The translations under genes and the position numbers were made by a program. 64,000 bases of DNA, taken from Euglena gracilis (lineage: Eukaryota). This document shows positions 8,641 to 48,542 of this stretch, piece by piece. The stretch spans positions 30,818,395-30,882,394 of the forward strand of contig CP154954.1 of NCBI GenBank assembly GCA_039621445.1, written 5' to 3'. How positions within the stretch are numbered: the stretch's first letter is position 1; each line of letters begins with the position of its first letter. A model generated the notes under the pieces. It was not told the DNA's origin and made no database searches. It saw only the letters and a list, made by a program, of their open reading frames with translations.

Positions 8641-8678
8641 GGAGAATGCCCTGGCCCCCCTTTTTTCAGTGCACAATC

Positions 8679-8785
8679 TGGCCTCACAATGGCAAAGTGC
8701 GGAGCCCGAGGTGTCTCGTACTCCCTCGAGGCAGACCGAGAAGGGAGGAAGGGACACCGAGGGCGAAGCACAAAGACATTGTGAG
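8679..8785. repeat. Internal complementary region (ICR) of the DIRS element
   Basis: Its reverse complement reads ...gggagtacgag-acacctcggg..., i.e. the right terminus joined to the left terminus (circle-junction sequence). Confidence 0.85.
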
Positions 8786-13119: not shown

Positions 13120-14499
13120 TAATTGGGATTGGTGTTGGGCCACGCCTCAGGCGAAGGAGTCGCGGAGGCTTCACGACGTGCCATCCGGGGGCACAGGGCA
13201 CTTGAAAACGGAGAACAACCGCAAATACGGCGCGAAGACTGCCACATTCACACTTTGAAACGGGCCAAGCATGCAGCAAAAGTGGCCGGTACCAACCCTG
13301 GGAGCCTTCGGCGGCCCTTAAGGAAATCAAAAAAAAAAAAGGGTCAACTTCGGGATAAAAAGTGATTTCTGGCATCCTTGGACTGTCACCCATTCGCCCA
13401 AAACGTCAACAAAATGTGTTTTTTTTTGGCCTCTCCCATCCCGGCGGACCACCCTGCCCGGGAGAGGCTGGAACTGTTGGGCTGGGGGAGAATCGGTGTT
13501 GGATCCCTGCTGCAGATTGAGTCCCGAAGGACCTTGCAAGCGAACCAGGGGGTCTGACGGATCAAGAAGGCAATCCCCACCAAAAAAAGTTACGACAGGA
13601 AAACCTGATTGCAACACACCTTAGCGCTTGGGTGGTCCCTCTGTCTGTATGTGAAATATTCTCCCTGCTTTGGAGCTGGGCGGGACTCACGGGTGGATGG
13701 GAAGACCCTTGCGAAGCGCCGGCGGCTGGCTGCACATCCGTTCAAATCCATTCACTGGCTGGGACAACGCAAACACGCAGGTCCACACGCTTGAGTCTTC
13801 GCGTGCCACGCACATGCGGTCCGGCGTGTGCACACATGCACATGGGAGTGTGGCGTCAGCCACTGCCGGGCCGGGGAGATGGGTGGGGGGCCCGCGTCTG
13901 TCAGCCAGTCATCGGCGCAAACGAAGACGGAGGGCGCGTCGCCCGATGGCCGGATGGAGTTGACGACGGCTCGACAGCCCCTGGCTGTCGTGCAGGACGA
14001 CTCCCCCTCACGTCGACGTTCCCAAAAATGTGAATTCCGGCGCCGAGCCCGACAGTGTCAACTTTGGTGGGGAGGAGAGGGGACAGAGGTTGGCAGCCCC
14101 CGCGATGTGGAATGGGATGGAGGTCGGGATGCAGACAGGGGCCGCGCGGCGTGGGGGTCAAAAAGCCCGTTGGCGAGCACCACCACCCGCTGCAGCGGGG
14201 AGGACGTTGCCGTGGGGGCTCCGGCTGGGTTGGAGTGTAGGGGTGGCACTGCGATTCTGGAATGGCCCCGACCACAACCTTGGGAACTGGACACTGCTCC
14301 TCAACTTGCTCAAGGCGAAGGCCAGAGGATGCAGGACGGACTAAGCCAGTCCGTGAACGGCTTGCACAGATATCAAATTGTCAGCCCTCTGAAACACACA
14401 AAAAAAACTGGTTTCAAATGTCCTGCTGGCACCAACAAGGAAAAGCGAAAAGCGAAGGCGAACACAGACTGCACCGGAGATCCCGACCCCCAGGAACAG

Positions 14500-17400
14500 G
14501 GTGTTGGTCTTCGGCCCCTTCGCGGGGCCCCCAGCGCTGCCCGCGGGATGGCGAGGCGCTCCGCCTCCGGGATGCGGGCCAGGATGTGGCGGGCCTTCGT
14601 GGGGCTGGTGGACACCGCCTGGCCGATGCCGTGGTGGCCGAGCAGCGCCGCCCCGACGTCCCGCAGCTTCGTCAACACGGGGCCCGCCGTGGCCTGCACG
14701 TGCAGCACGGGGGCAGGCCAGCTCCGGGCCGGGTGGCAGGGCTGGGCCTTGCGGGGTCCTTGCCCGGGGGGGGGGGGGTGGAATTACACCAGAGTTGCTC
14801 ACCCGGCCAGGCGGAGCAACAAAAGAGTACTGGTGTAAGGGGTGCCTGGCCACTCACCACACAGCAATTTGGGCAGAAGCGAAGATAGCGCCGGCCATAA
14901 ACAGACAAGAAGTTTTAGTGCGACTGAGGGGGGAAGTTGGTGCGGCAGGGGCGCCACCTCGGCACGGGGTGTGGCAGGGCTCCCTCCTCCTCCTGGGTCG
15001 GTCTCCGCACTGCTGCTTCCCGCTGTGGGGATGCCTGGCATGGAAACGCCTGTCACGGATCCCCCCCCCCCGGCTGTATCGGTAATGGGTCCTGAGGCAC
15101 CACCACCTGGCGCGCAGGGTCCTGATGCGGGGGCCGTACGGCATATTGCTGGCCTGGGCGTAGGGGAAATGGGCCCACGCCGTGCGGATGGCGACGTTCT
15201 GGGCGATGGCCTCCTCTGGAGGGGGTTGGCGCAGAGACCAGCAGGCTCCGGTCCGGTCGCCCCCCCCCCCCAACTGCACTGCACCCGCCCAGAGGTTGTT
15301 TTTTTAAGACCCACACCCTGCCTCCGGTGGCATACCCACTCGGCCTGACTTCCGCTGTGGGTGGGCTCAGCCGGGCACCCACCCACCCCCCCGGGTCACA
15401 AAACATAAAAAAAAAATCACTGCGCCCACCCTGCTGTGCTGTCCAGAAGGGGGGGGGGGGCTCGACGGCCCCAACCCCGGCGGCAGTCTCCCGGCGGGCG
15501 GCGTTGGTGCCCTTCAGGCGGTCGTAGAGCTCCTTCGACTGCAGCGCCACCGTGTCGAGGTGGATGACGCACGAGTACCGGTTGCTGCCGGAGGCCGGCG
15601 GACGTTCTGCGGAGGACCACAGCGGAGTCACGTTCGGACAAATTTGTTTTTACCGACCCCCTTTTTACCGACCGAGGGGGGTCTCAAGCCAGTCAGTCAC
15701 CCTCCTGGGTTAGCCATTGACTAGGTGATTGTTTGGTCATGTTCAATTGGGAGGCGCACGTCCACCACAACCAATCCAAAAGGATACAATCGCTTGCATC
15801 ACCCGTGGGGCGTGCGAAAATTCCACTGAACGGTGTGCTCTCTCTCCCATCGACCCCCTCCTGGCAACAATGGTCCCGACCACTTCCCACCGGGGGGGGG
15901 GGGTCGGAGGGGGGGCACCCCCGGCCCCCGCCCTTTGCCAACGTCGTCCCACGTCATGTCGGCGGAGCGCAGCAGCGCCTCGTACTCCGCCTCGGAGATG
16001 AACGCGCGGGGGTCCAGCAGGCCGCGGTCGAACAGCACCACGACGGGCCGCCCGGTGGCGCGGGCGAACTGCTCCGCGTAGCGGATGAGGCTGTCCTCCG
16101 AGTGGGGGCACGGCGGCGGCGGGGGAGATGGACGGGTCCAGGAATTGGTCGGGGGAAACACATACATGGAACAAGCGCAAAAATGCACTGTCTTCACATC
16201 TTTTTGCTACAAATCGGGATAATGTATGATGTACATGATATGATGATATCGGGGACTTGCTGACATACGGAAATATGGACAGGGGTCCAGGCATACCATA
16301 TCATCACGCATCAACGAAGCCAGCCGCCACACCACCCTGGTTGCCGCAAAAAATGGAACATCTCTCGCTGCCACACCACTCTGCAGGAGGGCAGTCCTCC
16401 GCAACAGGAGCCTGACAAGAATCGGGCGGATGCAATGTGCCAGTGGCACCCTGTTGCCATGCTGAGGCAGAGGCGAAGGGAATCCACCTGGACTTGTGCA
16501 TTGGCGCCGAATGCCCATCCCCGCCCCAATCCCTGGGGTGGTGAGGCGTCCAGCAGAACCAGAACAAGCAAAGAAAAAAAAAACGGTGCAGGTGGGGAGG
16601 AATTGAGAAACACTCTGCTCTTGGTTGGGCGAGTCTATGCGAAGGGCTCCCCTCGACGCAGGGCCTCGTTGTTGGCGGGGAACTCAGTCCCCTGGCGAGA
16701 CCACGAGGTGGCCTTCTCGGTGCAATGGGCGGCCTCGCTGCCTGTGCGCCACGAGCCCACTGGTTGCTTGTGGGATCGAAAATGGACGTGTGCCGAATTG
16801 CCCGAAAACGAATGCCCAATGCAACTCAGCCTTGGTAAAGGGAGCGACACAAAGAGGCTGTTAAGGGCAGCGGGAACCAAACCACCCTGCATAAGGAAAA
16901 CCTCCCGCACGCTGAAGGAATTGAACCGAAAATATCAGCACCCCGAGAAACACCGGAAAGGTGGTGTGCGGGAGGGTGATCGGACCCCCCATACCCACCA
17001 GGGTAGGGATTTCGACCCCCCGCAATCCATATGGTCCACACAGCCTGGCCAGGGGGAGGATGGAAAAAGTATTCCTCGGAGCCGGGGTTATTTCTCAGTT
17101 TCGTTTCCAGGCTTCCAGTGTCATGTGAAGCTTCTCCTTCCAGAGGAGCTGACTGCGCGGGCGGCCCCACCCCGGAGGCAGCGGGGCGGCGGAACACGGC
17201 GTAGCCGTTCTCCTCCAACAGGGTCCGCAGGTACTGCAGGCTGGAGCTCTTGCCCGCTGCGGGCCCCCCGGTCGGGGGCGGCGGACCACATCGCCGGGAC
17301 ACACTGCCGGGGGGGGGGGGCACTCGCACGGTCGAGGAACCCTCTGGCCCGGGTTGACGCCGGGGCAGAGAGGCGTCATTGTTTCGCATGGATGGGTCCG

Positions 17401-17915
17401 CGTCAGGCACGCCTGGTCCGCATCTGTCGCGGACCCCGTTTGAAACGTCCGCCAACAGACACGAAGCAGGGAGGCAGCCACTGTCCCCAGACACAGCACC
17501 TGGGCACTGGCATGGAAGGGGTGTCTTCAGCGGCTGGGGTTGCTTACGCGCACGTGCATACAATTAGGGGTCTTTGAGGAAAGGTGTCCGTGTTGTGCAG
17601 GGGGGTGTTCAAACCTCATTGTGCCTCCACCCTCGATTTTGAAAACGCCCAGCTTTATGAAAATGGCACTGCAGTCAGTCGGTCTGATTTTGTGAGAAAA
17701 CGAGAAATGAGTATTCGCACACAAACACACCACACACACCATACACACGTCGAACTGCATGTACAAGTGGTTGTGTTGGGTATTATAACAAAAGACTGAA
17801 AGAGAATAAGCATCCTGAGATAAGATTGTGGCCCGCCGCTCAAAACCACCAAATGTAGCCGACCAGTGCAGCTGCTGTTTGATTCTGGCCGCTCCAGCAC
17901 GGTCACCAGGCTTGC
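14500..17915 (-). CDS. Multi-exon AAA_28 / TTD14-like P-loop NTPase domain
   Basis: Exons in order: LHLVVLSGG (~17832-17915), PAAGKSSSLQYLRTLLEENGYAVF (~17195-17263), TEKATSWSRQGTEFP (~16660-16725), QVDSLRLCLSM (~16457-16490), EDSLIRYAEQ…VLFDRGLLDPRAF (~15940-16098), NRYSCVIHLDTVA…NAARRETA (~15481-15590), EEAIAQNVAIRTAWAHFPY (~15155-15216), LHVQATAGPVLTKL (~14510-14710). The motif order matches the GGP-x-xGK / PExAT / DRGxxD / RYxxVxHL / AWxxHP family pattern. Confidence 0.75.
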
Positions 17916-24200: not shown

Positions 24201-27200
24201 TCCAGGCTGAGGAGGTGGGCCGCGTCGTGCAGCTCGACCACCACCAGCGTGTCCACGTCCACCGTGGCCGCCGACCCTTCCGCCAGCACTGCGACGCGGG
24301 CGGGAGCGGGAACGGGTCAGCAATGTCCCTCACCCAAGCCCGGTTGGAACACCTCTGTGTGCCTCTCTGGGACACAATCTGGGGTCTGGAGGCGTGAGGC
24401 GGGGAGTGAGGCCGGGCATTGAAGCAAAAACAATGACGTTCTGCACGTCTTGGGTCTCTCAGAATTATGATGAAATATACCGATTGTTTTGACCCCCACT
24501 GACCCAGAAATACAAAAAGGCGACTATTTCACATTTTGTGGTCAAAATTCGAAAATGAGGACCCTCAAATTTCATCTTCAAAAAATCATTTTTGGTGAGA
24601 AACAGCGAAATTTTCGAGAAACATTTGTCAGGTGACAGGTCAGCGAGTACGTAGGTTGGTGACAGGCCCCCTAGTGTCAAATCCCTCAGGTCAATGAGGA
24701 CAGGGCTTAGATGACAGTTTCCCGAGGATTATAGTTTCCTGGGGGTAGGTAGGTATGAAATGGTTTAACATCAAGGCATTAGGGCCTAACCCCTTCCAAA
24801 TAAAATCACCCTGCACCGACTGGCAAAATATCCAAAATAAGACCCCCAATAGAACCCCCCCGTGACGGCGGAAATTGCTGGAGACGGTGAAAGAATCCCC
24901 TGAAAAATTACCAAAAAAGACCCAATTTCAGCTGCAAAAAAATGATGGAATTTGAAAATTGGGGTTTTGAAATCAAAAAAAATTACAAAAAATATCAACC
25001 GGTCATATTTTTGGGTCCGTTGCTGGAAACTTCCAGGGGAGTCTAATTTTGGGGGGAGATCTTATTTTTGATTTTTTTTTGAAAAACACTGAAAAATTCC
25101 TTTGGCTCTTCGCGCCGGGGACCAAAATCATCGAAAATGTGAAAAAAGCGAAAAAAGTTGCCAATTGTGCAAAAAAAAATCACCAAAACTTTGAACCCCC
25201 AATTCCGCCCATTTTAAACCTTTTTCGCCCCTCAAAATCCGGAATCTGTTACCATCCAGCAGCCCTTTGGGAGATTGCAAAATAAATAAAATTCGGGGGA
25301 GAGGGGGATCAAATTTGAAGATCAAATCTGATCCAGGATGAAGGGGACGCCGTAAACTCCTTGGCCCAAAAGAAAATGCTCCATTTCACCAAAAATTTGC
25401 AAAAAAAGGGCAACAGTTCAAGGGGCAGAGAGGGGGGGGGAATAATGGGGGCAAAGCAAAAAAAATAATACGAGTTCGCTGGCACACACCGCAGCGCAGG
25501 GAATCGTCCACCAGCAAGACTGCCCACTCATCACCACCGCCGTCGGCGTCTCCTACACTGCACTTCACGAAGCTGTCCACCTCGAACTGCCTGTTGAGAA
25601 AGAATGGACAATTTGCAATTATTTGCAATTGCAAATTGTGTATGAATCACGCATTGACGCTGTGTGAATTAAAATGTGTGTGTCTGAAAACAATGAAAGA
25701 AATTGAAGATAGCTTCGCAACACACGCTTGTGAAACCACCAGATTTAATTGGCCACCAATTGACCATATTGAGGTTTAATTTGTTCCAATTTTTCAATAT
25801 TTTGGTGACATATAATTTTTATTACTCTTTGCTGTTCCAGTAAAGGTCAAACTTTTCTCACATGTCATCATCGTCGTAATTTTTTTTGTAAACCCATGCT
25901 GCAGTGTGAGGCAACTGTTGATTCATTCACCGTTGGGTGCCGCGTCCAAAACGTGCGTGCGGCGGCATCGGCATGGCTGCCGCGGGGCCACACCGGTCCT
26001 CCACGGAGCCAGCCGCCCTCGTGGCCTGGAACCAGTGGCAGCCCCGGCCCTGCACGTCGGCCAGCAGGAGGGCGTGGACGGCGGCGGACCGGGCGTACCA
26101 CGCCATGTGGAACGCGCTGTCCAGCAGCCCGTCCCGGGAGGGCGGTGGCTGGACTGGGGAAATGGGCCGGGGGGGGGATGAGTGCGGCAGTCCCCAGGGG
26201 TATGGAATGGTGGCACGCAAGGCAAACGAGAATCTCGCTTCCACCAGCCATAATGAGGCGATGAGTGAGAAGGTGGACACCCCAAACGTACCATGCAGGG
26301 AAAATTAAAAGATTGGCAAAAGGATGGAAAAAATCCTTTTCTGGGGTGAAATTAAAAAAATCACAGGCAAATCACATATGAAATATTTTTTTTTAAAAAA
26401 AAATCCCAGCGAAGTCGAAACTAACAAGACTAAGAGTCATTGCAAAACGTGTGCAGGAAGACCATAAACGTATGGGCGTGCCTTGACAAACTGCAAGAGC
26501 TGGACCAAGAACTGCTGCGACCAAGATTGACGAACACTCCGGAGACCATCGCAAAAGCAAATGCTCAGAAAATGTGCCATTTGTGCCGGGGGGGGGTCCA
26601 CCGCCGCCCTGCCGGCCAACAGCTGCGCCAGGGCAGCCAGCCGAGCCCGGGGCCCGGCGTCCGCCAGCACCACCAGCTCGTACCGGCGCCGGGGCGTCCC
26701 CCCGCGCTGGAGCCGGTACGGTGGGGCAGGGCCGGGGCTTGGGCCGGCGACTCAGACGCCCCCGTCAACACCTGGTGTGCTGGGGGGGGATAATAGAATA
26801 AATTATAATTGAATTCAAAAATTAAACAAACAATAATATAAACAAATTATAATATAAATATAAACAATACAAATACAAACATAAACATAAAATAATAATA
26901 TAAACATAAATATAAATATAACATAACATAAATAACACAAACATATAAACATAAACATAAACAATAATACAAATATAAACAATAATATAAATGATGTAAC
27001 ATACATATATATATATATGTATATATATGTATACGACATGAATTAGCATATAATATAATGTATGATAATATAATAGATGATGCATCAATATGGAAAATAG
27101 ACCTAATTATTTGCCGGGGGCTAAGGTGCGCGAAGGGTTGGGCCGGAAGCCGGTCGTTTCTGTTGCAGTTCCCCAGGGATGCTCACGCAAGGGTTTTGAT

Positions 27201-30200
27201 TTGTGGCTCCCGTCTGACACTTGGAGACGCACGCATCGTGGGAAGCAGGGTTCCCACAGAGAGCAGAGCCAGGCTTCTTCTTCTTCTTACCAACCCCCGG
27301 GGGTGCCTTGTGCTTTGGGGTGCCTGCCCCAGGCCGTTTTTTGTATCAACCCCCAGGGGGGGGATCCGGAGTGCCTGTGAGTGCCTGCCCAGGCAGGCAC
27401 CCCCCCCCCCCCCCCGGGGGGGTCGGATTTCGGCCTGTGCCCAGGCGCATTCCTGTGAAAATACGCCATTTTTGGCTCCTTCGGCGCCGGGGTCTGTGCC
27501 AGGGCACTTTTGGCCGTGTGCCCTACCCCCCCACCCCGGGGGTACCCCCCGGGGGGGGGGTCAGATTGGGAGTGCCTTGGAGTGCCTGTCCAGGCAGGCC
27601 CCCCCTCCCCCCCTGGGGTGGGGTCGGCACCCGACTAAAATACAGCCCTGGTGCCTGCCCATAGCAGGCGCCCCTCCAGGGGGGTGCGACTTTCCTTAAA
27701 CAGAAGCCTGGGCAGAGCCCCTCGCTCGATAAACCTGAAGCGCACTTCCAAACCAGGCAAACCAGGGAAAATTGCATGCAGGTGTTGGTGAAAATGGGAG
27801 ACCCCCCCAGCAGCCACCCGACGTGGCGAGGCGAAGATCCCAAGGCATGGCGACTTGGAGCATTGTCATCCTGCTGTGCGAAATTGGACAATGGCAAGCG
27901 GACAGAAAAGAAACCACGACGCCGTATCTGCTTGGGAGAGGCAACTGGGGAAGCCACACATATAAAACCCCTTTCAACCCGAACACTTCACACTGTGCCA
28001 AAAAAAGTCAAAAAATCTGACCCCACACTGATGCAGCCAATTATGTTCCGCATTGAGTGTTTTGAACTTATGCCCCTTTGGCAGGATGATTATGGGAGGT
28101 GCCTTCCACAGCCGATTTCTTAACCGAGGTGTAACGATGGGGATGGATCGTAAGCCCCGGCCACTCCTTGGGAGGGCCCCGGACGTGGGGCGGTGGGGGC
28201 TCCAGTGGACCCCGCGGGCTCGCGCCCCCAGAGTTGGTCCACACAGCGCTCCTCTCCTTCTGGCCAGGGGATGACTTTAGGGCCCCCGGGGGGGGGGTCC
28301 AGCCTCCGGCTGGCAAAAAGGCTGCTGGCTGGACCCCCCGGGGTATAGGGGGGGGGGGAGGGGGGCTGGAGGGGGCTGGGCTGGGTCGACGAAAAACAAA
28401 AAAAATTTAAATCATTTTGTCTTTTGACATTTTGGTGGATGGAGCTAGATGAAGGCTGGGGGCTGTGATGGAGGAGGCTATGATCAGGCACCTATGGTCA
28501 CTTCCCATTTTGGTGCTCTGGTCGGCCCTGGTCGGCCCTGGTCGGCCCTGGTTGGCAAATAGTCGGCCATAGGTGGGGGTATCCTGCACAGAAAAAATGT
28601 GAGGGATGGAATGATTTTCTGAATTGTCTCGCCAAGATCAAAAGGAAGTGCCCCATAAGGCCTCCATTTGCACCCCAAAAGCAACCAAAAAGACCTAAAA
28701 TGGCTTGAAATAACCAAAAATTACCCAAAAACGCCAACAAAATCCACAAAAGATTGTGAAAAATGACCCAAAATTACCAAAAGGGCACAAAATGGCAAAA
28801 AAAATGCTCAGATTGACCCAAATTAGCCCAATATTTGCCAAATCAGTGACAAATAGCCCCCAAATTAGCAAAAACTGGTCCATAATGGCCAAAATGGGTG
28901 TAAAACTGGAGATTTGTGGGAAAATTATCCAAAAATGGGTTTATTTCTTCAAAATATACAAAAAAAAGCATCGCCCAGCAACACCCTGCATCGCCCAGCA
29001 TCGCCCAGCATCGGAACCCCACCTCTGGTCTCCAAAAATCCAGCATCACCCAGCATCGCCCAGCATCGCCCTGCATCGCCCAGCATCATCAGAGGTGCTT
29101 GTTCCAGAGGGAAAGCTGCCGAATTCCTTCATCCATTCCCCTTCGGTCGGCCAACCACATGCAAGTCGGCCCTGGTCGGCCCTGGTCGGCCCTGGTCGGA
29201 CCCCCCCCCTACGGGGGGGGGGGGGGGTCCTGAAAATCATAGTCGACCCTGGTCGGCCCTGGTCGGCCGTAGGTGCCTGGCTATGATGAGGGAAAAAAAT
29301 GCAGGGATGGGTGAGCTGGGCAGCTCAGTTGGCTGGCCCGGCCTTCGGCCGGCTGGCCCGACCTCCGGCCGGGCTGGACCCGACTTTATTTCACTCGACC
29401 CCCCCGGGGGATCCCAGCCCGAATTTGGGCTGCTGGCTGGATTTGAGCTGCTGGCTGGCTGGACCCCCCTGGGGGTAGGGTACCCTCCGGCTTAAGAAAT
29501 CCCCTGCTTCTGGCACCTCCCGTCCGCCGGTTCACTGTTGGCATTGGTGCCGCTGGCGGTTGGTTTCCGTTTGTTTGCGGCGGTCGGGCCAGTTTCACAG
29601 TCGACTGCGAAATAGGCATTGCCGAACCGGACGACATTCGGGGACCTCTCAGGAGTGGGCCACCGGAGGCCATGGGCAAGGGAGGCTGCGCGGAGGAGGC
29701 CTGTGGTTGTGGCTGAGAGGCCGTTGAGCGGCGGCCACATTGCTGGAGGTGGTGGCAGCCCTTCCCCGAAACGAGGCCCTCCACAGCGCTCAAGGTGTCA
29801 AAATCCACAGGAAGCAGGGGTTTTCTTAAGGACGCCCGGGGGGGGGGTGCTGCAGGGAGGCTGGAAAAAGGTGCTGGCTGGACACCCCCCCCCCCCATGG
29901 TTGGACCCGGGGTGGGGGGTCCAGGGGGGGGGTTTGGCCGGTTGGGAGCTGGCCCCGGCGGATACCCCAAAAATGCCCAAAGGAGGTGAAGACCCAAAAA
30001 CCATCCCAAAATGTCATTTTTGGCCATTCTTTACATCCCTTTTCAAAAAAGTTTCGGTTTGCACGAAACTTGTTTTTCGGTCCAGCCCGGCTTTGCCGGG
30101 CTGGCCCGACCTTTATTTCAGTGGACCCCCCCGGGGGGGAGGGGGTCCGCAAGCGTGGCTGGGAGGCTGGCTGGCTGGAACCCCCCGGCCGGCTTAAGAA

Positions 30201-33200
30201 AACCCCGATGGGAACTGTGCCCTTCCACCACAGACTACAGCGGATATTGAGGCACCTCAAGGATTTCTTGGAGGACCCATTCTCCTCAAATTGGGGAAAT
30301 ATCATTGGCATGCATCACCGCTGCACTGTATTTAGAGACTGCCATCCATTCAAAGCCGCTGAATGCACCACAAAGCATCGGGCATTGACATCTGCACACT
30401 GATAACTCGTCAGCCGATGTGGGGAAGGGCTGCGCAGCGGTGGGCGGCTTCGTCGTCTCATCGTCCGTTGGCTGACAGCAGACGCTTCAGGTCAACCCAG
30501 CTCAGGCATACTTACACCGGCGGCTGACGTCAAACTTGGTGACATTGAACCATTTGTGCACACGTTTGGGAGGCAATGGCAACCCGCTCGCTTATCTGCT
30601 CTCGACCCGTACAAATGTGCGGGGCGGAGACCTTCCACTTTTAATGAACGGGCGAGGCTCGCTGAAATGGCAGGGGTCCCCCGGCCACATGGCTGTGGCC
30701 TGGGGAAACGGGTTGGCCGCAGGAGGAGCTGTTTGGGTGTGCCTGGTCCGTTGCCGTGGGGCCAACCTGGACCTCGTCCTGGAAGCGCAGGCGGCGCTGG
30801 GGACCCGCCCCACCCCCCTGCCGCGCGGAGGCCGCCCGCTGGAGGCAGCCGCGGCTGCTGCGAAGGAGGACCTGCAGTGCCACCGGAGGGGGACCGCATT
30901 GACACGGCCCATGGAGTGTGTGGCAGCGGGTACCACGGACACGCGGGGGACGTGCACCACACCAACACGAAGCCTGGCGGGAAAAAGTGGCAGAGGGCTT
31001 TTTGGGACTGCCACGGACATGGGAGGCTCATTCAGGACGCAAAGGAAACATTTTGGGTTCCCTCCAGTAGGAAGAGCAACGCAAACACGAGGCGGGAGTT
31101 GGGTGGAGTCCGCCATGCAGGGCACGGTACTGGACAATGGATGAGTTTTTGGGCCCGGAAATCGATTCTCATAACACCCAGAAAATGACCCGCCCCCAAA
31201 CCTAAACACCCTGAGAGTATTGATCAATGATATTCGCCCAAATATGAAACCCGGGCAGGTTGAAGTTTGAGGGAGGGGGTAGGAAGCAGATGGACAATGA
31301 ACAGAATACACGGATGGGATGGACACATACGGGGATTCAGGTGGGGAGAAGATGGAAAATATTATTAATCAACCTTATTAGAAACACCCACGTGGCCTGC
31401 TGCAAGCACATCTAGATGATACTATTTTCTTTACCGACCCCTGGGGGGTCACTCCACTCTTCGAAAAACCAGTCGGTCACTTTTTTTTTGGAAAACCAGT
31501 CAGTCACTACCCTGGGCTGGGGGGGGGGTTGGTCACTCTGGAACCTGAAGGAAACTTGACCAAAAAATATGAAAAAAAAGGCCAAAGAAATTTATCTGCG
31601 CCTTCGGAGCCGGGTCGCTTTAGTGGTTTTTTGCCGACCCCCCCCCCCCGCGGGAGGAAGGCCGGGCCAAAAACCGGTCACCCACCCCCCTGGGGGGGGG
31701 TCGGCCAGTGACTAAGTGATTGTATGATCTAGATATGATCTAGATACTGGCAAAGGCCTCCCCTGTCCTATGGGCAGGCAGCCGCCGGCTGGTCGGTTGT
31801 GCACAGTGATCTCCAGCGGCCCCACCCGGAGGGGGAAGGGCGGGTGGAGCGCCTCGAACCGCCGATGCAGCAGCACGCCCGTCCAATCCGGCCTCGGCGG
31901 GGCATCTGCCAAGAGGGGAGGGACAGGGGAGGCTGGGGACCACTGCCGGCGGCTGTGGGACTCGGCTGCACTCGACTGCGTCCGTGACGGGGGAGGGGGG
32001 GCCGGGGGAGGGGGCATACCGCTCACCATCCGCCTCAAGGATGCCGCCCCCGCCGGCTGGGGAGGACGGAGGGGCGCAGTGGGGCGGACTAGCCAGGGTT
32101 TCCATCGGGGCCCATTCTTTATGGGCATTTTGGAAACCTCCAGAAACCTTGCCTTTTCTGGCCAAAATGCCTTGAAAACCCTGAAAGCGCCTTAAAAGCC
32201 AGAAGAAATCATTCTGGCAATTTCTCTGACTGACGGAAAAATTGGCCAAAACTGGCGGACTCCAGGAAGAGACTTTGGAGCACGGTGACGTCTTTCTGAA
32301 CATTGTGTCTATCCACCCTGAACTCGGAGAAGATGTGTTCTTCGACGCTTTGATTTCCAACCCCGGTCGCCGCCTGGAATGCTCTTCGACTGCCCTTAAA
32401 AAAGTACAACGAATAAGAAACAAACGGAAATAATAGGATCTTTCATGAACTGTGCAAAAAAATGCCTCAAAACTCAATTATAATGACTTCCGCCCAAAAA
32501 AATGGGCCTGGTTTCTATCGGCTGCAGTCAAAATGCCACTGCTGGCGACCCAGACTGAGTGGCCCGCCACTCCCCCCCCCTAGATGGAAACCTTAATGCA
32601 GACTGCTGCCGGCAGGGGTATTCTTGAGGACCCCGGAAGGGGTGGGTCCCACAGGGAGGCTGGAAAAAAGGTGCTGGCTGGAAAAAAAGGTGGTGGCCAC
32701 TCCCCCCCCCCCCCAATGGCTGGACCTGGGGTGGGGGGTCCGGGGGTGGGGGGGGGGGAGGGTCCGGCTGGCTGGCAGCTGGACCCAGCTGGAACCCGAA
32801 AACAGGCAAAAAAAAGCCCAAATCCAGCTGGGTTGGCATTTTCAGCCAAAATTGGGAGGTGAAAGCCCAAAACCACCCCCAAAATGCCATTTTTGGTCAT
32901 TTTGACCCCCCCCTTTCAAAAAAAATGGCCTGGCCCCACCGGCCCCCACCAGAAATTTATATCAGCGGACCCTGTGGGGGGGGGGGGGGTTCGCAGCCCG
33001 TTGGCTGGGAAAAATGCTGGTTGGCTGGACCTCCTCTGTGTCCCCTCCAGCTTAAGAAAATCCCGGGCTGCCGGACTGGATTTTATTGCAGTGTTCTCAG
33101 ACGGATGAGATGGGGGTGGGGGGAGTGGCCAAGGGTCCCCGGCTGGAACTGGGCCTGACTGGGGGTCGAACCGGGTGACAAAAATCGAAACTGCAAAATG

Positions 33201-38526: not shown

Positions 38527-41500
38527 CACCATGCCCTGTCAGTCGGTGTGGGCGGTGTGTTGTCAGTCTGTGTTGCGGTTTCGCCCCAGGCTGGCAGGTG
38601 GGGCATCGTCAGGGGTGACGACCCTGCCAACCCTCGTCCCCGACCGCTCTTGTCTGTGTGGTGCAGACCGTTACAAACGAGCTCTGCGTCACCCTCCCGG
38701 GGGTGCGGAGGGGGGGGGGGGCTGAAAAAAACCGGCCCCAAAAACAAGGCAGCGCGGGACGGAAAAATGGTCCACTACCTACGGGGCACCCTCCGGGACA
38801 GCACCCTTTGGGGAGGGCGAGACAAGGCCCTTTCGGTGTGGAAAGAGGCAAAAATTGCCGAAAAATACGGACGGCACCCGAAGGCTTGGGGCGCGAGTAC
38901 CCAAATTAAGCCGCCGGTCCTGGGGTCGCAGCACCAACCCCTGGGGGAGGGGGTGGCCTGAGCCGCCGGTTGCTCAGTAGAACTGCCGCGGGTTTAGCCC
39001 ACAAAATGGGGCGCTGGGGGCGAGGCATGGGGGTGCGAAACAACCGCGCCATGCAATTCTGGGAAAAATGCCATGGAAAGCTCCATGGGACGCAGGGTCA
39101 CTGCGTAAATCTCTCTTCTGAATCGGTGTTGCTGGGGGAACTCCTTGGGGGGAACTCCTTGCCGACCCGAGAGTGTGTGCTTGTGGGGGAAGTGTGTTGT
39201 CAGTCGGTGTGGGCGCGTGTGTTGTCAGTCTGTGTTGCGGTTTCGCCCCAGGCTGGCAGGTGGGGCATCGTCAGGGGTGACGACCCTGCCAACCCTCGTC
39301 CCCGACCGCTCTTGTCTGTGTGGTGCAGACCGTTACAAACGAGCTCTGCGTCACCCTCCCGGGGGTGGGGGAGGGGGGGGGGCTGAAAAAAACCGGCCCC
39401 AAAAACAAGGCAGCGCGGGACGGAAAAATGGTCCACTACCTACGGGGCACCCTCCGGGACAGCACCCTTTGGGGAGGGCGAGACAAGGCCCTTTCGGTGT
39501 GGAAAGAGGCAAAAATTGCCGAAAAATACGGACGGCACCCGAAGGCTTGGGGCGCGAGTACCCAAATTAAGCCGCCGGTCCTGGGGTCGCAGCACCAACC
39601 CCTGGGGGAGGGGGTGGCCTGAGCCGCCGGTTGCTCAGTAGAACTGCCGCGGGTTTAGCCCACAAAATGGGGCGCTGGGGGCGAGGCATGGGGGTGCGAA
39701 ACAACCGCGCCATGCAATTCTGGGAAAAATGCCATGGAAAGCTCCATGGGACGCAGGGTCACTGCGTAAATCTCTCTTCTGAATCGGTGTTGCTGGGGGA
39801 ACTCCTTGGGGGGAACTCCTTGCCGACCCGAGAGTGTGTGCTTGTGGGGGAAGTGTGTTGTCAGTCGGTGTGGGCGCGTGTGTTGTCAGTCTGTGTTGCG
39901 GTTTCGCCCCAGGCTGGCAGGTGGGGCATCGTCAGGGGTGACGACCCTGCCAACCCTCGTCCCCGACCGCTCTTGTCTGTGTGGTGCAGACCGTTACAAA
40001 CGAGCTCTGCGTCACCCTCCCGGGGGTGGGGGAGGGGGGGGGGCTGAAAAAAACCGGCCCCAAAAACAAGGCAGCGCGGGACGGAAAAATGGTCCACTAC
40101 CTACGGGGCACCCTCCGGGACAGCACCCTTTGGGGAGGGCGAGACAAGGCCCTTTCGGTGTGGAAAGAGGCAAAAATTGCCGAAAAATACGGACGGCACC
40201 CGAAGGCTTGGGGCGCGAGTACCCAAATTAAGCCGCCGGTCCTGGGGTCGCAGCACCAACCCCTGGGGGAGGGGGTGGCCTGAGCCGCCGGTTGCTCAGT
40301 AGAACTGCCGCGGGTTTAGCCCACAAAATGGGGCGCTGGGGGCGAGGCATGGGGGTGCGAAACAACCGCGCCATGCAATTCTGGGAAAAATGCCATGGAA
40401 AGCTCCATGGGACGCAGGGTCACTGCGTAAATCTCTCTTCTGAATCGGTGTTGCTGGGGGAACTCCGTGGGGGAACTCCTTGCCGACCCGAGAGTGTGTG
40501 CTTGTGGGGGAAGTGTGTTGTCAGTCGGTGTGGGCGCGTGTGTTGTCAGTCTGTGTTGCGGTTTCGCCCCAGGCTGGCAGGTGGGGCATCGTCAGGGGTG
40601 ACGACCCTGCCAACCCTCGTCCCCGACCGCTCTTGTCTGTGTGGTGCAGACCGTTACAAACGAGCTCTGCGTCACCCTCCCGGGGGTGGGGGAGGGGGGG
40701 GGGCTGAAAAAAACCGGCCCCAAAAACAAGGCAGCGCGGGACGGAAAAATGGTCCACTACCTACGGGGCACCCTCCGGGACAGCACCCTTTGGGGAGGGC
40801 GAGACAAGGCCCTTTCGGTGTGGAAAGAGGCAAAAATTGCCGAAAAATACGGACGGCACCCGAAGGCTTGGGGCGCGAGTACCCAAATTAAGCCGCCGGT
40901 CCTGGGGTCGCAGCACCAACCCCTGGGGGAGGGGGTGGCCTGAGCCGCCGGTTGCTCAGTAGAACTGCCGCGGGTTTAGCCCACAAAATGGGGCGCTGGG
41001 GGCGAGGCATGGGGGTGCGAAACAACCGCGCCATGCAATTCTGGGAAAAATGCCATGGAAAGCTCCATGGGACGCAGGGTCACTGCGTAAATCTCTCTTC
41101 TGAATCGGTGTTGCTGGGGGAACTCCTTGGGGGGAACTCCTTGCCGACCCGAGAGTGTGTGCTTGTGGGGGAAGTGTGTTGTCAGTCGGTGTGGGCGCGT
41201 GTGTTGTCAGTCTGTGTTGCGGTTTCGCCCCAGGCTGGCAGGTGGGGCATCGTCAGGGGTGACGACCCTGCCAACCCTCGTCCCCGACCGCTCTTGTCTG
41301 TGTGGTGCAGACCGTTACAAACGAGCTCTGCGTCACCCTCCCGGGGGTGGGGGAGGGGGGGGGGCTGAAAAAAACCGGCCCCAAAAACAAGGCAGCGCGG
41401 GACGGAAAAATGGTCCACTACCTACGGGGCACCCTCCGGGACAGCACCCTTTGGGGAGGGCGAGACAAGGCCCTTTCGGTGTGGAAAGAGGCAAAAATTG

Positions 41501-44500
41501 CCGAAAAATACGGACGGCACCCGAAGGCTTGGGGCGCGAGTACCCAAATTAAGCCGCCGGTCCTGGGGTCGCAGCACCAACCCCTGGGGGAGGGGGTGGC
41601 CTGAGCCGCCGGTTGCTCAGTAGAACTGCCGCGGGTTTAGCCCACAAAATGGGGCGCTGGGGGCGAGGCATGGGGGTGCGAAACAACCGCGCCATGCAAT
41701 TCTGGGAAAAATGCCATGGAAAGCTCCATGGGACGCAGGGTCACTGCGTAAATCTCTCTTCTGAATCGGTGTTGCTGGGGGAACTCCTTGGGGGGAACTC
41801 CTTGCCGACCCGAGAGTGTGTGCTTGTGGGGGAAGTGTGTTGTCAGTCGGTGTGGGCGCGTGTGTTGTCAGTCTGTGTTGCGGTTTCGCCCCAGGCTGGC
41901 AGGTGGGGCATCGTCAGGGGTGACGACCCTGCCAACCCTCGTCCCCGACCGCTCTTGTCTGTGTGGTGCAGACCGTTACAAACGAGCTCTGCGTCACCCT
42001 CCCGGGGGTGGGGGAGGGGGGGGGCTGAAAAAAACCGGCCCCAAAAACAAGGCAGCGCGGGACGGAAAAATGGTCCACTACCTACGGGGCACCCTCCGGG
42101 ACAGCACCCTTTGGGGAGGGCGAGACAAGGCCCTTTCGGTGTGGAAAGAGGCAAAAATTGCCGAAAAATACGGACGGCACCCGAAGGCTTGGGGCGCGAG
42201 TACCCAAATTAAGCCGCCGGTCCTGGGGTCGCAGCACCAACCCCTGGGGGAGGGGGTGGCCTGAGCCGCCGGTTGCTCAGTAGAACTGCCGCGGGTTTAG
42301 CCCACAAAATGGGGCGCTGGGGGCGAGGCATGGGGGTGCGAAACAACCGCGCCATGCAATTCTGGGAAAAATGCCATGGAAAGCTCCATGGGACGCAGGG
42401 TCACTGCGTAAATCTCTCTTCTGAATCGGTGTTGCTGGGGGAACTCCTTGGGGGGAACTCCTTGCCGACCCGAGAGTGTGTGCTTGTGGGGGAAGTGTGT
42501 TGTCAGTCGGTGTGGGCGCGTGTGTTGTCAGTCTGTGTTGCGGTTTCGCCCCAGGCTGGCAGGTGGGGCATCGTCAGGGGTGACGACCCTGCCAACCCTC
42601 GTCCCCGACCGCTCTTGTCTGTGTGGTGCAGACCGTTACAAACGAGCTCTGCGTCACCCTCCCGGGGGTGGGGGAGGGGGGGGGGGCTGAAAAAAACCGG
42701 CCCCAAAAACAAGGCAGCGCGGGACGGAAAAATGGTCCACTACCTACGGGGCACCCTCCGGGACAGCACCCTTTGGGGAGGGCGAGACAAGGCCCTTTCG
42801 GTGTGGAAAGAGGCAAAAATTGCCGAAAAATACGGACGGCACCCGAAGGCTTGGGGCGCGAGTACCCAAATTAAGCCGCCGGTCCTGGGGTCGCAGCACC
42901 AACCCCTGGGGGAGGGGGTGGCCTGAGCCGCCGGTTGCTCAGTAGAACTGCCGCGGGTTTAGCCCACAAAATGGGGCGCTGGGGGCGAGGCATGGGGGTG
43001 CGAAACAACCGCGCCATGCAATTCTGGGAAAAATGCCATGGAAAGCTCCATGGGACGCAGGGTCACTGCGTAAATCTCTCTTCTGAATCGGTGTTGCTGG
43101 GGGAACTCCTTGGGGGGAACTCCTTGCCGACCCGAGAGTGTGTGCTTGTGGGGGAAGTGTGTTGTCAGTCGGTGTGGGCGCGTGTGTTGTCAGTCTGTGT
43201 TGCGGTTTCGCCCCAGGCTGGCAGGTGGGGCATCGTCAGGGGTGACGACCCTGCCAACCCTCGTCCCCGACCGCTCTTGTCTGTGTGGTGCAGACCGTTA
43301 CAAACGAGCTCTGCGTCACCCTCCCGGGGGTGGGAGGGGGGGGGGCTGAAAAAAACCGGCCCCAAAAACAAGGCAGCGCGGGACGGAAAAATGGTCCACT
43401 ACCTACGGGGCACCCTCCGGGACAGCACCCTTTGGGGAGGGCGAGACAAGGCCCTTTCGGTGTGGAAAGAGGCAAAAATTGCCGAAAAATACGGACGGCA
43501 CCCGAAGGCTTGGGGCGCGAGTACCCAAATTAAGCCGCCGGTCCTGGGGTCGCAGCACCAACCCCTGGGGGAGGGGGTGGCCTGAGCCGCCGGTTGCTCA
43601 GTAGAACTGCCGCGGGTTTAGCCCACAAAATGGGGCGCTGGGGGCGAGGCATGGGGGTGCGAAACAACCGCGCCATGCAATTCTGGGAAAAATGCCATGG
43701 AAAGCTCCATGGGACGCAGGGTCACTGCGTAAATCTCTCTTCTGAATCGGTGTTGCTGGGGGAACTCCTTGGGGGGAACTCCTTGCCGACCCGAGAGTGT
43801 GTGCTTGTGGGGGAAGTGTGTTGTCAGTCGGTGTGGGCGCGTGTGTTGTCAGTCTGTGTTGCGGTTTCGCCCCAGGCTGGCAGGTGGGGCATCGTCAGGG
43901 GTGACGACCCTGCCAACCCTCGTCCCCGACCGCTCTTGTCTGTGTGGTGCAGACCGTTACAAACGAGCTCTGCGTCACCCTCCCGGGGGTGGGGGAGGGG
44001 GGGGGGCTGAAAAAAACCGGCCCCAAAAACAAGGCAGCGCGGGACGGAAAAATGGTCCACTACCTACGGGGCACCCTCCGGGACAGCACCCTTTGGGGAG
44101 GGCGAGACAAGGCCCTTTCGGTGTGGAAAGAGGCAAAAATTGCCGAAAAATACGGACGGCACCCGAAGGCTTGGGGCGCGAGTACCCAAATTAAGCCGCC
44201 GGTCCTGGGGTCGCAGCACCAACCCCTGGGGGAGGGGGTGGCCTGAGCCGCCGGTTGCTCAGTAGAACTGCCGCGGGTTTAGCCCACAAAATGGGGCGCT
44301 GGGGGCGAGGCATGGGGGTGCGAAACAACCGCGCCATGCAATTCTGGGAAAAATGCCATGGAAAGCTCCATGGGACGCAGGGTCACTGCGTAAATCTCTC
44401 TTCTGAATCGGTGTTGCTGGGGGAACTCCTTGGGGGGAACTCCTTGCCGACCCGAGAGTGTGTGCTTGTGGGGGAAGTGTGTTGTCAGTCGGTGTGGGCG

Positions 44501-47313
44501 CGTGTGTTGTCAGTCTGTGTTGCGGTTTCGCCCCAGGCTGGCAGGTGGGGCATCGTCAGGGGTGACGACCCTGCCAACCCTCGTCCCCGACCGCTCTTGT
44601 CTGTGTGGTGCAGACCGTTACAAACGAGCTCTGCGTCACCCTCCCGGGGGTGGGGGAGGGGGGGGGGGGCTGAAAAAAACCGGCCCCAAAAACAAGGCAG
44701 CGCGGGACGGAAAAATGGTCCACTACCTACGGGGCACCCTCCGGGACAGCACCCTTTGGGGAGGGCGAGACAAGGCCCTTTCGGTGTGGAAAGAGGCAAA
44801 AATTGCCGAAAATACGGACGGCACCCGAAGGCTTGGGGCGCGAGTACCCAAATTAAGCCGCCGGTCCTGGGGTCGCAGCACCAACCCCTGGGGGAGGGGG
44901 TGGCCTGAGCCGCCGGTTGCTCAGTAGAACTGCCGCGGGTTTAGCCCACAAAATGGGGCGCTGGGGGCGAGGCATGGGGGTGCGAAACAACCGCGCCATG
45001 CAATTCTGGGAAAAATGCCATGGAAAGCTCCATGGGACGCAGGGTCACTGCGTAAATCTCTCTTCTGAATCGGTGTTGCTGGGGGAACTCCTTGGGGGGA
45101 ACTCCTTGCCGACCCGAGAGTGTGTGCTTGTGGGGGAAGTGTGTTGTCAGTCGGTGTGGGCGCGTGTGTTGTCAGTCTGTGTTGCGGTTTCGCCCCAGGC
45201 TGGCAGGTGGGGCATCGTCAGGGGTGACGACCCTGCCAACCCTCGTCCCCGACCGCTCTTGTCTGTGTGGTGCAGACCGTTACAAACGAGCTCTGCGTCA
45301 CCCTCCCGGGGGTGGGGGAGGGGGGGGGGGCTGAAAAAAACCGGCCCCAAAAACAAGGCAGCGCGGGACGGAAAAATGGTCCACTACCTACGGGGCACCC
45401 TCCGGGACAGCACCCTTTGGGGAGGGCGAGACAAGGCCCTTTCGGTGTGGAAAGAGGCAAAAATTGCCGAAAAATACGGACGGCACCCGAAGGCTTGGGG
45501 CGCGAGTACCCAAATTAAGCCGCCGGTCCTGGGGTCGCAGCACCAACCCCTGGGGGAGGGGGTGGCCTGAGCCGCCGGTTGCTCAGTAGAACTGCCGCGG
45601 GTTTAGCCCACAAAATGGGGCGCTGGGGGCGAGGCATGGGGGTGCGAAACAACCGCGCCATGCAATTCTGGGAAAAATGCCATGGAAAGCTCCATGGGAC
45701 GCAGGGTCACTGCGTAAATCTCTCTTCTGAATCGGTGTTGCTGGGGGAACTCCTTGGGGGGAACTCCTTGCCGACCCGAGAGTGTGTGCTTGTGGGGGAA
45801 GTGTGTTGTCAGTCGGTGTGGGCGCGTGTGTTGTCAGTCTGTGTTGCGGTTTCGCCCCAGGCTGGCAGGTGGGGCATCGTCAGGGGTGACGACCCTGCCA
45901 ACCCTCGTCCCCGACCGCTCTTGTCTGTGTGGTGCAGACCGTTACAAACGAGCTCTGCGTCACCCTCCCGGGGGTGGGGGAGGGGGGGGGGCTGAAAAAA
46001 ACCGGCCCCAAAAACAAGGCAGCGCGGGACGGAAAAATGGTCCACTACCTACGGGGCACCCTCCGGGACAGCACCCTTTGGGGAGGGCGAGACAAGGCCC
46101 TTTCGGTGTGGAAAGAGGCAAAAATTGCCGAAAAATACGGACGGCACCCGAAGGCTTGGGGCGCGAGTACCCAAATTAAGCCACCGGTCCTGGGGTCGCA
46201 GCACCAACCCCTGGGGGAGGGGGTGGCCTGAGCCGCCGGTTGCTCAGTAGAACTGCCGCGGGTTTAGCCCACAAAATGGGGCGCTGGGGGCGAGGCATGG
46301 GGGTGCGAAACAACCGCGCCATGCAATTCTGGGAAAAATGCCATGGAAAGCTCCATGGGACGCAGGGTCACTGCGTAAATCTCTCTTCTGAATCGGTGTT
46401 GCTGGGGGAACTCCTTGGGGGGAACTCCTTGCCGACCCGAGAGTGTGTGCTTGTGGGGGAACCGTGTTGTCAGTCGGTGTGGGCGCGTGTGTTGTCAGTC
46501 TGTGTTGCGGTTTCGCCCCAGGCTGGCAGGTGGGGCATCGTCAGGGGTGACGACCCTGCCAACCCTCGTCCCCGACCGCTCTTGTCTGTGTGGTGCAGAC
46601 CGTTACAAACGAGCTCTGCGTCACCCTCCCGGGGGTGGGGGAGGGGGGGGCTGAAAAAAACCGGCCCCAAAAACAAGGCAGCGCGGGACGGAAAAATGGT
46701 CCACTACCTACGGGGCACCCTCCGGGACAGCACCCTTTGGGGAGGGCGAGACAAGGCCCTTTCGGTGTGGAAAGAGGCAAAAATTGCCGAAAAATACGGA
46801 CGGCACCCGAAGGCTTGGGGCGCGAGTACCCAAATTAAGCCGCCGGTCCTGGGGTCGCAGCACCAACCCCTGGGGGAGGGGGTGGCCTGAGCCGCCGGTT
46901 GCTCAGTAGAACTGCCGCGGGTTTAGCCCACAAAATGGGGCGCTGGGGGCGAGGCATGGGGGTGCGAAACAACCGCGCCATGCAATTCTGGAAAAATTCC
47001 ATGGAAAGCTCCATGGGACGCAGGGTCACTGCGTAAATCTCTCTTCTGAATCGGTGTTGCTGGGGGAACTCCTTGGGGGGAACTCCTTGCCGACCCGAGA
47101 GTGTGTGCTTGTGGGGGAAGTGTGTTGTCAGTCGGTGTGGGCGCGTGTGTTGTCAGTCTGTGTTGCGGTTTCGCCCCAGGCTGGCAGGTGGGGCATCGTC
47201 AGGGGTGACGACCCTGCCAACCCTCGTCCCCGACCGCTCTTGTCTGTGTGGTGCAGACCGTTACAAACGAGCTCTGCGTCACCCTCCCGGGGGTGGGGGG
47301 GGGGCTGAAAAAA
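38527..47313. repeat. Tandem array of ~661-bp near-identical units (~13.3 copies)
   Basis: Identical ORFs recur every 659-662 bp; the differences are mostly homopolymer length. Confidence 0.98.
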
Positions 47314-48542
47314 ACTCTCTCTCTCTCTCTCTCTCACATCACATCACATCGCATCGCATCGCATCACATCAAATCACATCACACCACATCACATCACACA
47401 CACATGCACACAAGCACGCATGCGCACACCCACCCACCCTCCACACACATCATACACATGCACACACACACACATCGCGCGCACACACCATATTGACGAA
47501 GCGGATCTGGAAGCCGGTCTCGCCACCAAGCTCTTGTCCCCGCTCGCTGGAGATGTACTCCGGGATGGTGATGGCGGAGATGCGGCGCGGCTGTGTCGCC
47601 CACAGCACCCCCTCAGGGCTGACCCACACCGCGAACAGGGTCGAGAGGGTGCCTTGCCCAACCGGCTTCACCATCCAGGCCTGCCCCCCCCCAACCCCAC
47701 ATGTCCCAACAACGCCGAGGCCGGCCTGAGCACAATGATCTGGCGGTCTCCGGGGACGATGTTCGCATCCAGGAGGAACTGCGGGATGAGGGTGGTCTTC
47801 CCTGTGAGTTGGAAGGACCGGGGAAGATACCCGACACACAACGCTTTCCCAAACAGAAATTGATGCCACAGGAAAAGCACTTCGGCGGGGTCACAATGTG
47901 AGTATTACACAGTTGTAATATTGTTGGAGGAATTTCGACTCGACTAATTTTCTTAGTTATTCAAACACACACACAAAGAATCAAATCGTTCTATTGAAGG
48001 TTGAAGACTTCAAAGGAAATGCTTCCAATTATGACACAGCAGGGTCGTTTTGCAGAGGCCCTTTACCGTTCGACAAATGATCTGAAAAAAAAACTTGCAA
48101 AACGTATGTGAGAAATGGTCGCCAGGAATTAAAGTTTCAAACCAAGGGTCAGAGCTGAGGCTTGTAAACCCTGTTCTGTCAAGGCTCTGTGAAGGGCAGA
48201 CAGAAGGTGTCATACCACACCCCGTCCCGCCTGAGATGACGGTCACCTTGTTGTCCGCCACCGCCCGCACCAGCTGCAGGTTTTCTTTGTCCATTGGAGA
48301 CCAGGGGCTGAGAAGGGAGGGGGGAGGTTGAGCAGATGCCTGGGACCCCGAGTTGGCGCTCCACCTCCCAGGCAGAACAAACGCCCGGATATAGAAACCC
48401 TGGCCACCTCCTCGCGGACGAAGTACGACGGCATCGCCTTGCTCCGGGCGGAGTACTTCTGCTCGTTGCGCCGCAGGCACTCCACGGCAAAGTCCGCCGG
48501 GCTCATGGCCGGCGGGCGGCGCTGCTCCGCGGGCTTGGGGGG
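47245..48542 (-). CDS. DEAH/RHA-family RNA helicase, N-terminal RecA1 exons (motifs I, Ia and start of Ib)
   Basis: Exons 48542-48408, 48273-48216, 47801-47732, 47597-47489 and ~47283-47245 give MPSYFVREE-LVRAVADNKVTVISGGTGCG-KTTLIPQFLLD…IIV-TQPRRISAITIPEYISSERGQELGGETGFQIRFVNM-VTQSSFVTVCTT. Confidence 0.9.

Follow-up and report, generated by a model that had tools for sequence, protein, structure and literature searches.

Can transposable elements enter a Euglena gene and leave its transcripts again as introns, and is this what has happened in the 64,000-nucleotide stretch of the Euglena gracilis genome analysed here (contig CP154954.1, positions 30,818,395 to 30,882,394 of assembly GCA_039621445.1; hereafter the window, with positions counted from its first letter)? 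Two MITEs (miniature transposable elements with inverted repeats), referred to as A and B, separate three open frames of the minus strand, and a third, MITE N, lies inside A. A preliminary description of this DNA proposed that A, together with N, and B are consecutive introns joining three coding exons. The elements themselves and their intron-like borders stand up to analysis, and the gene is doubtful. The reading favoured here, at a probability of about 0.6, is that these are intron-ready MITEs of the hAT type; the DNA around them would be non-coding, weakly transcribed and downstream of a real gene.

MITE A occupies positions 28265-29506 (1242 bp including N; no strand is assigned to it or to the other MITEs), has the ends CAGGGG...CCCCTG and lies between two identical copies of an 8-bp target-site duplication, CTTCTGGC (28257-28264 and 29507-29514; 8/8). 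MITE N (28485-29279, 795 bp) belongs to a different family, with ends CAGGCA...TGCCTG; its termini, CAGGCACCTA...GGTGCCTG, both carry 10-bp subterminal repeats (GTCGGCCCTG units), and its own duplication, GCTATGAT at 28477-28484 and 29280-29287, is likewise perfect (8/8). MITE B (29815-30207, 393 bp) is an older, decayed member of the family that also includes A and a further element, MITE C, to which A is 75-79% identical, as it is to B. The left end of B reads CAGGGGTTTTCTTAAG, its right terminal CTG has lost one base, and its flanks, ACAGGAAG (29807-29814) and ATGGGAAC (30208-30215), match at five of eight positions, a decayed duplication. The 26-nt arms of B are 85% complementary, and in a fold of the whole element the ends are paired (z = -3.47). 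Judged by ends, terminal inverted repeats and duplications, the two MITEs and the nested third were thus found where the preliminary description had placed them; the range of duplications that it reported, from perfect (8/8 in A and N) to decayed (5/8 in B), also holds and points to duplications of different ages.

Public sequencing runs carrying the same species label were mapped to the locus: a DNA run (X20), a run that is RNA-type by inference (X1) and two raw RNA runs (X21 and X24), about 5-6% of each of the latter two being read. Over the arms of A the DNA-run depth is thousands of times the single-copy level (~30-50), and relative to unique flanks it ranges from hundreds-fold on B to tens of thousands-fold on A and N; these are summed depths and not copy numbers. 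N is truly nested within A, because other A-family copies skip 28476-29286 and reads from other genomic copies of N begin to diverge exactly at 28485. The joint from 28475 to 29287, which leaves N out and whose intervening letters differ, occurs in X20 DNA contigs, in X1 and in two RNA reads, and A-family copies without N therefore exist. X20 contigs, from a run that may be the source of the assembly, also span the borders between the right end of A, the frame at 29510-29809 and the left end of B, as well as the border between the right end of B and the frame at 30211-30311, so that the arrangement represents no mis-join. Scans of open reading frames (ORFs) in the window and in the surroundings of the MITEs gave no Pfam match inside A, N or B. 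As a separate observation, the stranded RNA of X24 over N (28401-29200) has a depth of 5.3-8.2 with the first mate on the plus strand versus 0-0.65 on the minus strand, which suggests that across the genome N-family copies are transcribed mostly in one orientation, or else that copies of one orientation, excised or retained, build up.

Elements of this build recur across the window. Ten elements were counted in a census that required CAG...CTG ends, terminal inverted repeats paired at 11 or more of 14 positions and an 8-bp duplication with no more than one mismatch, compared with none in 29 of 30 composition-matched shuffles and one in the remaining shuffle. The terminal inverted repeats of the census elements match at 11-14 of 14 positions, and a scan for the terminal inverted-repeat motif found six matches where 0.07 were expected. 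Duplications are perfect (8/8) around A, N and C, and the census has six such elements among its ten. The MITE structure is far beyond chance. MITE D (27270-27710, 441 bp), with ends CAGGCTTC...GAAGCCTG and a duplication preserved at 7/8 positions, belongs to a family that includes an element at 12596-12885, and MITE C (32613-33066), of the A/B family, is enclosed by the perfect 8-bp duplication GCTGCCGG.

Transposons of the hAT superfamily are recognised by 8-bp target-site duplications, short terminal inverted repeats with a CAG-like terminus and subterminal repeats. The elements described here resemble hAT-type MITEs in their 8-bp duplications, in terminal inverted repeats starting with CAG, in the 10-bp subterminal repeats of N and of a 1.7-kb CAG...CTG element, and in the probable decayed hAT C-terminus within that one class member; they differ in that the window holds no intact transposase and that the match to the superfamily is below cutoff. 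The 1.7-kb element (49315-51026, no strand assigned) has a perfect 8-bp duplication, GAGGCAGG, subterminal repeats and arrays of GGTGGGATCC and, on the minus strand, a probable, frameshifted remnant of a hAT-transposase C-terminus at ~49730-49932. A 38-residue frame within the remnant (49819-49932) matches Pfam Dimer_Tnp_hAT at E = 0.0024 and 18.1 bits, below the cutoff of 21.4, and of its five matches in the PDB, four are to Hermes transposase chains and align at the C-terminal signature (E values of 0.26-0.32). A tblastn search with the hAT fragment against plasmids, an unsuited search space, gave no match. This element would tie the class of CAG...CTG ends and 8-bp duplications to the hAT superfamily by evidence that is weak but consistent, and the relation of A, B, C and N to it is shown at the level of end type, not of family.

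What makes these MITEs intron-like is the position of their ends. The noncanonical introns of Euglena follow a code described from knock-in genetics, 5'-N3-CDG...CH'G-N5-6|R, in which the stretch following CAG pairs with the one preceding CTG (Nomura et al. 2025, PMC12501133); the same consensus is reported for E. gracilis (PMC11170887), and earlier accounts of euglenid nonconventional introns were given by Milanowski et al. (PMC3935182, PMC4770533). In the assays as reported by Nomura et al., introns of the CGG-CTG variant splice, length changes in the intron centre are without effect, synthetic introns with the code features alone get spliced, and of two intron backbones tested, one accepts a pyrimidine or T at the acceptor and the other does not (PMC12501133).

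The borders chosen in the preliminary description coincide with the N3 and N5 spacer positions of this code (PMC12501133) and are thus not arbitrary. On the minus strand, the putative intron at 28260-29509 consists of MITE A and one duplication copy; its sequence, AAG-CAG...CTG-GCCAG|A, agrees with the code throughout, as does that of N taken by itself (AGC-CAG...CTG-ATCAT|A). The candidate intron at 29810-30210, made up of MITE B and eight flank bases, reads CAT-CGG...CTG-CTTCC|T and fits except for the acceptor purine. In all three, as in the RNA-supported intron of the neighbouring gene described below (GAC-CAG...CTG-CCTCC), the CDG triplet stands exactly 3 nt past the donor and the CH'G triplet is followed by a 5-nt spacer, and the first base on the acceptor side is A everywhere except in B, where it is T. 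Among the ten census elements, seven obey the purine rule when read on the plus strand and eight when read on the minus strand.

The terminal folds of the RNA-supported intron and of A, B and N are alike, each with 3 nt unpaired, a stem and 5 nt unpaired. Folding of the 25-nt ends gives -21.7 kcal/mol for each of A, B and N and -28.3 kcal/mol for the RNA-supported intron (its other terminal fold reaching -8.8 kcal/mol), whereas random pairs of 25-nt ends have a mean of -11.0, a 5th percentile of -20.8 and a 1st percentile of -25.4 kcal/mol. The 25-nt-end fold of A thus lies beyond the random 5th percentile and short of the 1st, and its 10-nt-end fold (-10.5 kcal/mol) lies beyond the corresponding 1st percentile (-10.2 kcal/mol). 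A looser scan, for the code together with pairing at 10 of 12 positions (G-U included), gave hundreds of candidates; it is too permissive and served just for spotting the duplication of N.

Since the two spacers, three and five nucleotides long, add up to the eight of the duplication, cutting at these positions would restore the pre-insertion sequence, and since the ends match the code as well, the MITEs of this locus are, as far as their sequence tells, intron-competent by construction. MITE C, whose right terminal triplet is CGG and not CTG, therefore fails the noncanonical code on both strands. CAG...CTG ends read alike on both strands, so the whole class fits the code in either orientation; because this fit comes with the construction of the class, it is uninformative on whether the MITEs sit in a gene. 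By all features of sequence tested, the elements fall into the class excised by Euglena as noncanonical introns.

Evidence from RNA for an intron of the same architecture lies on the same strand, ~600 nt upstream, and from this splice architecture the window is taken to be euglenid-like. This intron of the neighbouring gene (30841-31794, minus strand, 954 nt; GAC-CAG...CTG-CCTCC|A) separates an exon at 31795-31905 from the last coding exon at 30641-30840, which ends in a stop codon at 30643-30641. Its removal from RNA at the code borders is supported by one X1 contig (319 nt, depth 56.8), which joins 30772-30840 to 31795-31905 with no mismatches; the intron interior has a depth of 4.4, and the X20 DNA contigs listed cross both borders unjoined. 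The flanking 8-mers match at 4/8 positions, and at its three equivalent positions the intron is bounded on the minus strand by GA..CC, CG..TC or CC..CT, with no GT-AG among them. The two exons together have strong codon periodicity (GC content by codon position 0.79/0.58/0.81, p = 0.00015), and X1 depth on the end of the gene is 12-28 down to ~30400 and 2.2 thereafter.

Several further features of this gene are recorded for completeness. A C-rich tract followed by AG, ending at 31906, resembles a conventional 3' splice site of the minus-strand gene (30641-31905), and the first 139 nt of the joining X1 contig map outside 27001-33000. The verified intron contains a high-copy repeat element (31418-31726, no strand assigned) with the 8-bp direct repeat ATCTAGAT at 31410-31417 and 31727-31734; it has no CAG...CTG ends and represents another MITE family with an 8-bp duplication. 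MITE C sits upstream of the exon at 31795-31905, and X1 coverage is nil at 32201-32600 in that interval, where a short protein-like frame of the plus strand (32230-32400) has weak periodicity (p = 0.03).

The flanks of A and B are the three frames of the preliminary description, all on the minus strand: the first at 30211-30311 (ATG 30311-30309, upstream stop 30317-30315), the second at 29510-29809, open in two of the three minus-strand frames, and the third at 27977-28259 (stop 27974-27976), which is weakly transcribed. X1 covers 28018-28195 (depth 3.3), 29601-29800 (7.2) and 30285-30435 (2.5); its depth is 2.2 on the first frame, 7.2 on the second and 8.2 on the third, and zero on the unique stretches 27001-27200, 27801-28000 and 32201-32600. 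X21 and X24, the raw RNA runs, reach depths of 0 to 1.15 over the unique flanks, and 596 of 621 mapped reads in X21 and 305 of 319 in X24 fit only in part, originating from repeats elsewhere. X24 reads on the second and third frames, 1-2 per bin, have the first mate on the plus strand only, as on the verified minus-strand exons. These data suggest that the flanks carry minus-strand RNA, and their transcription appears to be at about the pre-mRNA level of the neighbouring intron. Gaps of 401 nt and 1250 nt are not among the 15 joints listed (there being 606 more), which is uninformative at a flank depth of at most 1.15.

The sparseness of this RNA gives some room to the alternative that the MITEs lie inert between genes and are excised from no functional RNA, with the RNA on their flanks representing read-through noise or DNA carry-over. 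Besides the raw depth of 0 to 1.15, this would agree with the fall of X1 depth from 17-28 to 2.2 at ~30400, as expected at the transcript end of the upstream gene, with the RNA nature of X1 being a guess, and with MITE C, which, 2.4 kb away, has a perfect duplication yet fails the code, placing the family also where splicing is not required. It is nevertheless rather unlikely. X1 depth of 7-8 on the second and third frames versus zero on three unique stretches is a misfit even for DNA carry-over, X24 reads on these frames are oriented as on the verified minus-strand gene, and, as synthetic code-only introns are reported to be spliced (PMC12501133), any transcript passing through A should be processed.

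The gene model of the preliminary description goes further: a minus-strand protein gene, from an ATG at 30311 to a stop at 27974, would have been invaded twice by MITEs that are removed as noncanonical introns, joining three coding exons. Its arithmetic is right, since taking out 29810-30210 (401 nt) and 28260-29509 (1250 nt) leaves a single frame, the longest among the six, with 229 codons between stops and 228 if counted from the ATG (30311-30309) up to the stop (27976-27974). The model can also call on borders in agreement with the code, complete for A and near-complete for B, on the low-level minus-strand RNA of the flanks, on a GC content at third codon positions that in the first frame is highest in the proposed frame (p = 0.066), and on the abundance of such introns in Euglena genes, where they make up 71.8% of 649,158 introns in E. 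agilis according to Nomura et al. (PMC12501133).

The claim that the MITEs join coding exons is not borne out by the exons themselves. The second and third frames, which account for 583 of the 684 coding nucleotides, have no codon periodicity (GC by codon position 0.65/0.63/0.65, period-3 p = 0.95, and 0.55/0.57/0.60, p = 0.84), compared with p = 0.00015 on the verified exons, and all three frames lie downstream of the stop codon of the neighbouring gene at 30643-30641. In random sequences matched in length and composition (first-order Markov), the longest ORF reached at least 231 codons in 92 of 1000, or ~9%, and at least 200 codons in 223 of 1000. As the preliminary description cautioned, this DNA is open in more than one frame: a second minus-strand frame crosses the A junction and has 159 codons without a stop. 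Pfam yielded no family among 82 ORFs (45-119 aa) from the surroundings of the MITEs, and among the 150 longest ORFs of the window nothing in this region, the only matches being RVT_1 and sub-cutoff SPRY and Trans_reg_dom elsewhere. The second frame had no homologue (7 candidates, proteins of 54-174 aa), and the verified-exon control had none either. The automatic fit of the MITE class to the code on both strands is silent on coding. The joined open frame is not beyond chance, the three frames are probably not coding, and the gene model as a whole is improbable.

A third possibility, that these are spliceosomal introners of the Micromonas or dinoflagellate type, in which MITEs supply or co-opt GT/GC-AG sites for the ordinary spliceosome, has precedents among MITE-type introners with terminal inverted repeats and duplications in other protists (PMC11282704), but was rejected as hardly credible here, because no GY...AG pair yields an exact or in-frame removal at any sliding position of A or B and the RNA-supported neighbouring intron is non-canonical at all three equivalent positions.

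Several observations weigh against the favoured reading of intron-ready MITEs in non-coding sequence, some against the intron-ready part and some against the non-coding part. No read or contig with a 1250-nt or 401-nt gap occurs among the joints listed, so that the splicing of A and B is a prediction from the code; the RNA nature of X1 is a guess; and the acceptor position of B is a pyrimidine, tolerated in one of two published backbones (PMC12501133). Raw-run depth on the third frame (1.0-1.15) is above that on the verified exon (0.2-0.5), and the flanks may therefore belong to a distinct transcription unit that serves some function of its own. The first frame has a weak period-3 signal of GC in the proposed reading frame, as given above, over its 101 nt, and the periodicity test is low-powered on 300 nt, two Pfam-supported ORFs of the window reaching just p = 0.02-0.03. 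Finally, the RNA-verified coding exon has no homologue either (110 candidates, proteins of 115-2000 aa, in a collection evidently without this organism), and homology therefore cannot separate coding from non-coding sequence here.

On the reading of intron-ready MITEs, a plausible history of the locus would begin with B, the older and now decayed relative, followed by the recent insertion of A with its perfect duplication, and then by a later insertion of N into A. A minus-strand transcript across A, and probably also one across B, should lose the element, N leaving together with A; a plus-strand transcript across A would fit the code too. Splicing at the code positions would remove the element and one duplication copy, restoring the sequence as it was before the insertion. 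The 229-codon frame made by the removals would then be a chance ORF in a 3' untranslated region, a read-through transcript or a non-coding RNA, and not a protein.

It is tempting to extend this reading beyond the locus. We consider it somewhat more probable than the contrary that the noncanonical code is an RNA-level mirror of hAT transposition: spacers of 3 and 5 nt would together represent the 8-bp duplication, each CAG...CTG MITE would be born precisely excisable in either orientation, and young families, marked by perfect duplications, very high depth and nesting, would go on founding new introns and lengthening old ones. The 'slidable' repeats at the junctions of most Euglena introns would then be target-site duplications, and A, N and B an age series at one locus. 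What the locus contributes to this question is the coincidence of multi-copy MITEs, exact 8-bp duplications, ends and flanks that match the code, an adjoining RNA-supported intron of the same build and a probable hAT remnant in another member of the class. The hypothesis of a MITE origin thereby becomes a countable prediction, namely a spacer sum equal to the duplication length, a hAT source and excision in either orientation. The particular gene model of the preliminary description adds little, because there is probably no gene.

The rest of the window holds other repeats and likely genes. A tandem array at ~38600-46900, with a period of ~661 bp (identity peaks at shifts of 661 and 1321), is interrupted by indels and G-rich (GC skew ~+0.16); it has no Rfam match and no Pfam match in its ORFs, and TRF is silent on it as the period exceeds its limit. 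Rfam gave no match in the whole window. A retrotransposon remnant on the plus strand (4605-9199) consists of overlapping long ORFs in shifting frames, with RVT_1 at 6438-7424 (E = 1.3e-14). The strongest codon periodicity of the window (p down to 2e-5) is found at 13500-17600 and 51300-53400, which are likely real genes; a weak, sub-cutoff SPRY match lies at 51880-52542 on the minus strand, and the CAG...CTG elements at 12596-12885 and 49315-51026 adjoin these two periodic stretches. A sub-cutoff match to Trans_reg_dom was found at 48246-48671 on the minus strand (E = 0.00054, 20.7 bits versus a cutoff of 23.8).

Among known systems, the closest are the euglenid nonconventional introns themselves. 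The elements share with them the triplets CAG or CGG (positions +4 to +6) and CTG (-8 to -6), spacers of 3 and 5 nt, pairing inside the triplets, direct repeats at the junctions, which render the introns 'slidable', the lack of GT-AG and, for A and N, the acceptor purine; the RNA-supported intron (30841-31794) plainly belongs to this group. They differ in that A, B and N are known here as genomic elements, in that their flanks are not coding-like, and in the acceptor T of B. The origin of such introns is called unclear (PMC12501133, PMC3935182, PMC12621601) and their removal machinery is described as unknown, while the excised introns are reported in the literature as full-length circular RNA. 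A MITE origin is itself a published hypothesis (PMC3935182, PMC11282704, PMC12501133, PMC12621601): Nomura et al. leave the question open, writing that 'MITE-like elements may be their source' (PMC12501133), and terminal inverted repeats at +4 to +6 and -8 to -6 with 'TSD-like' junction repeats, TSD denoting target-site duplication, have been noted (PMC11282704). The literature searched, the supplements of PMC12501133 with a possible distribution of sliding distances being outside its scope, yielded no paper naming euglenid MITE families, equating the 8-bp duplication with the spacer sum or drawing a link to hAT. As reported, the published code was derived from introns without junction repeats, whereas here recognisable multi-copy MITEs combine exact 8-bp duplications with a link to hAT.

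The likeness extends to other intron-generating elements. Introners of Micromonas, Aureococcus and dinoflagellates are likewise described as DNA transposons with terminal inverted repeats and duplications that turn into introns, with the duplication helping to form the splice borders and with several ages coexisting (PMC9860276, PMC11282704); unlike the elements of this window, which have the ends of the euglenid noncanonical pathway, they are substrates of the spliceosome, which excises them at GT/GC-AG sites. The placement of N within A recalls twintrons, for example those of Euglena chloroplast genes, in that the two would form a nested excisable pair; A and N differ from these in being nuclear and transposon-derived, with N central in A and no obligatory order of removal implied.

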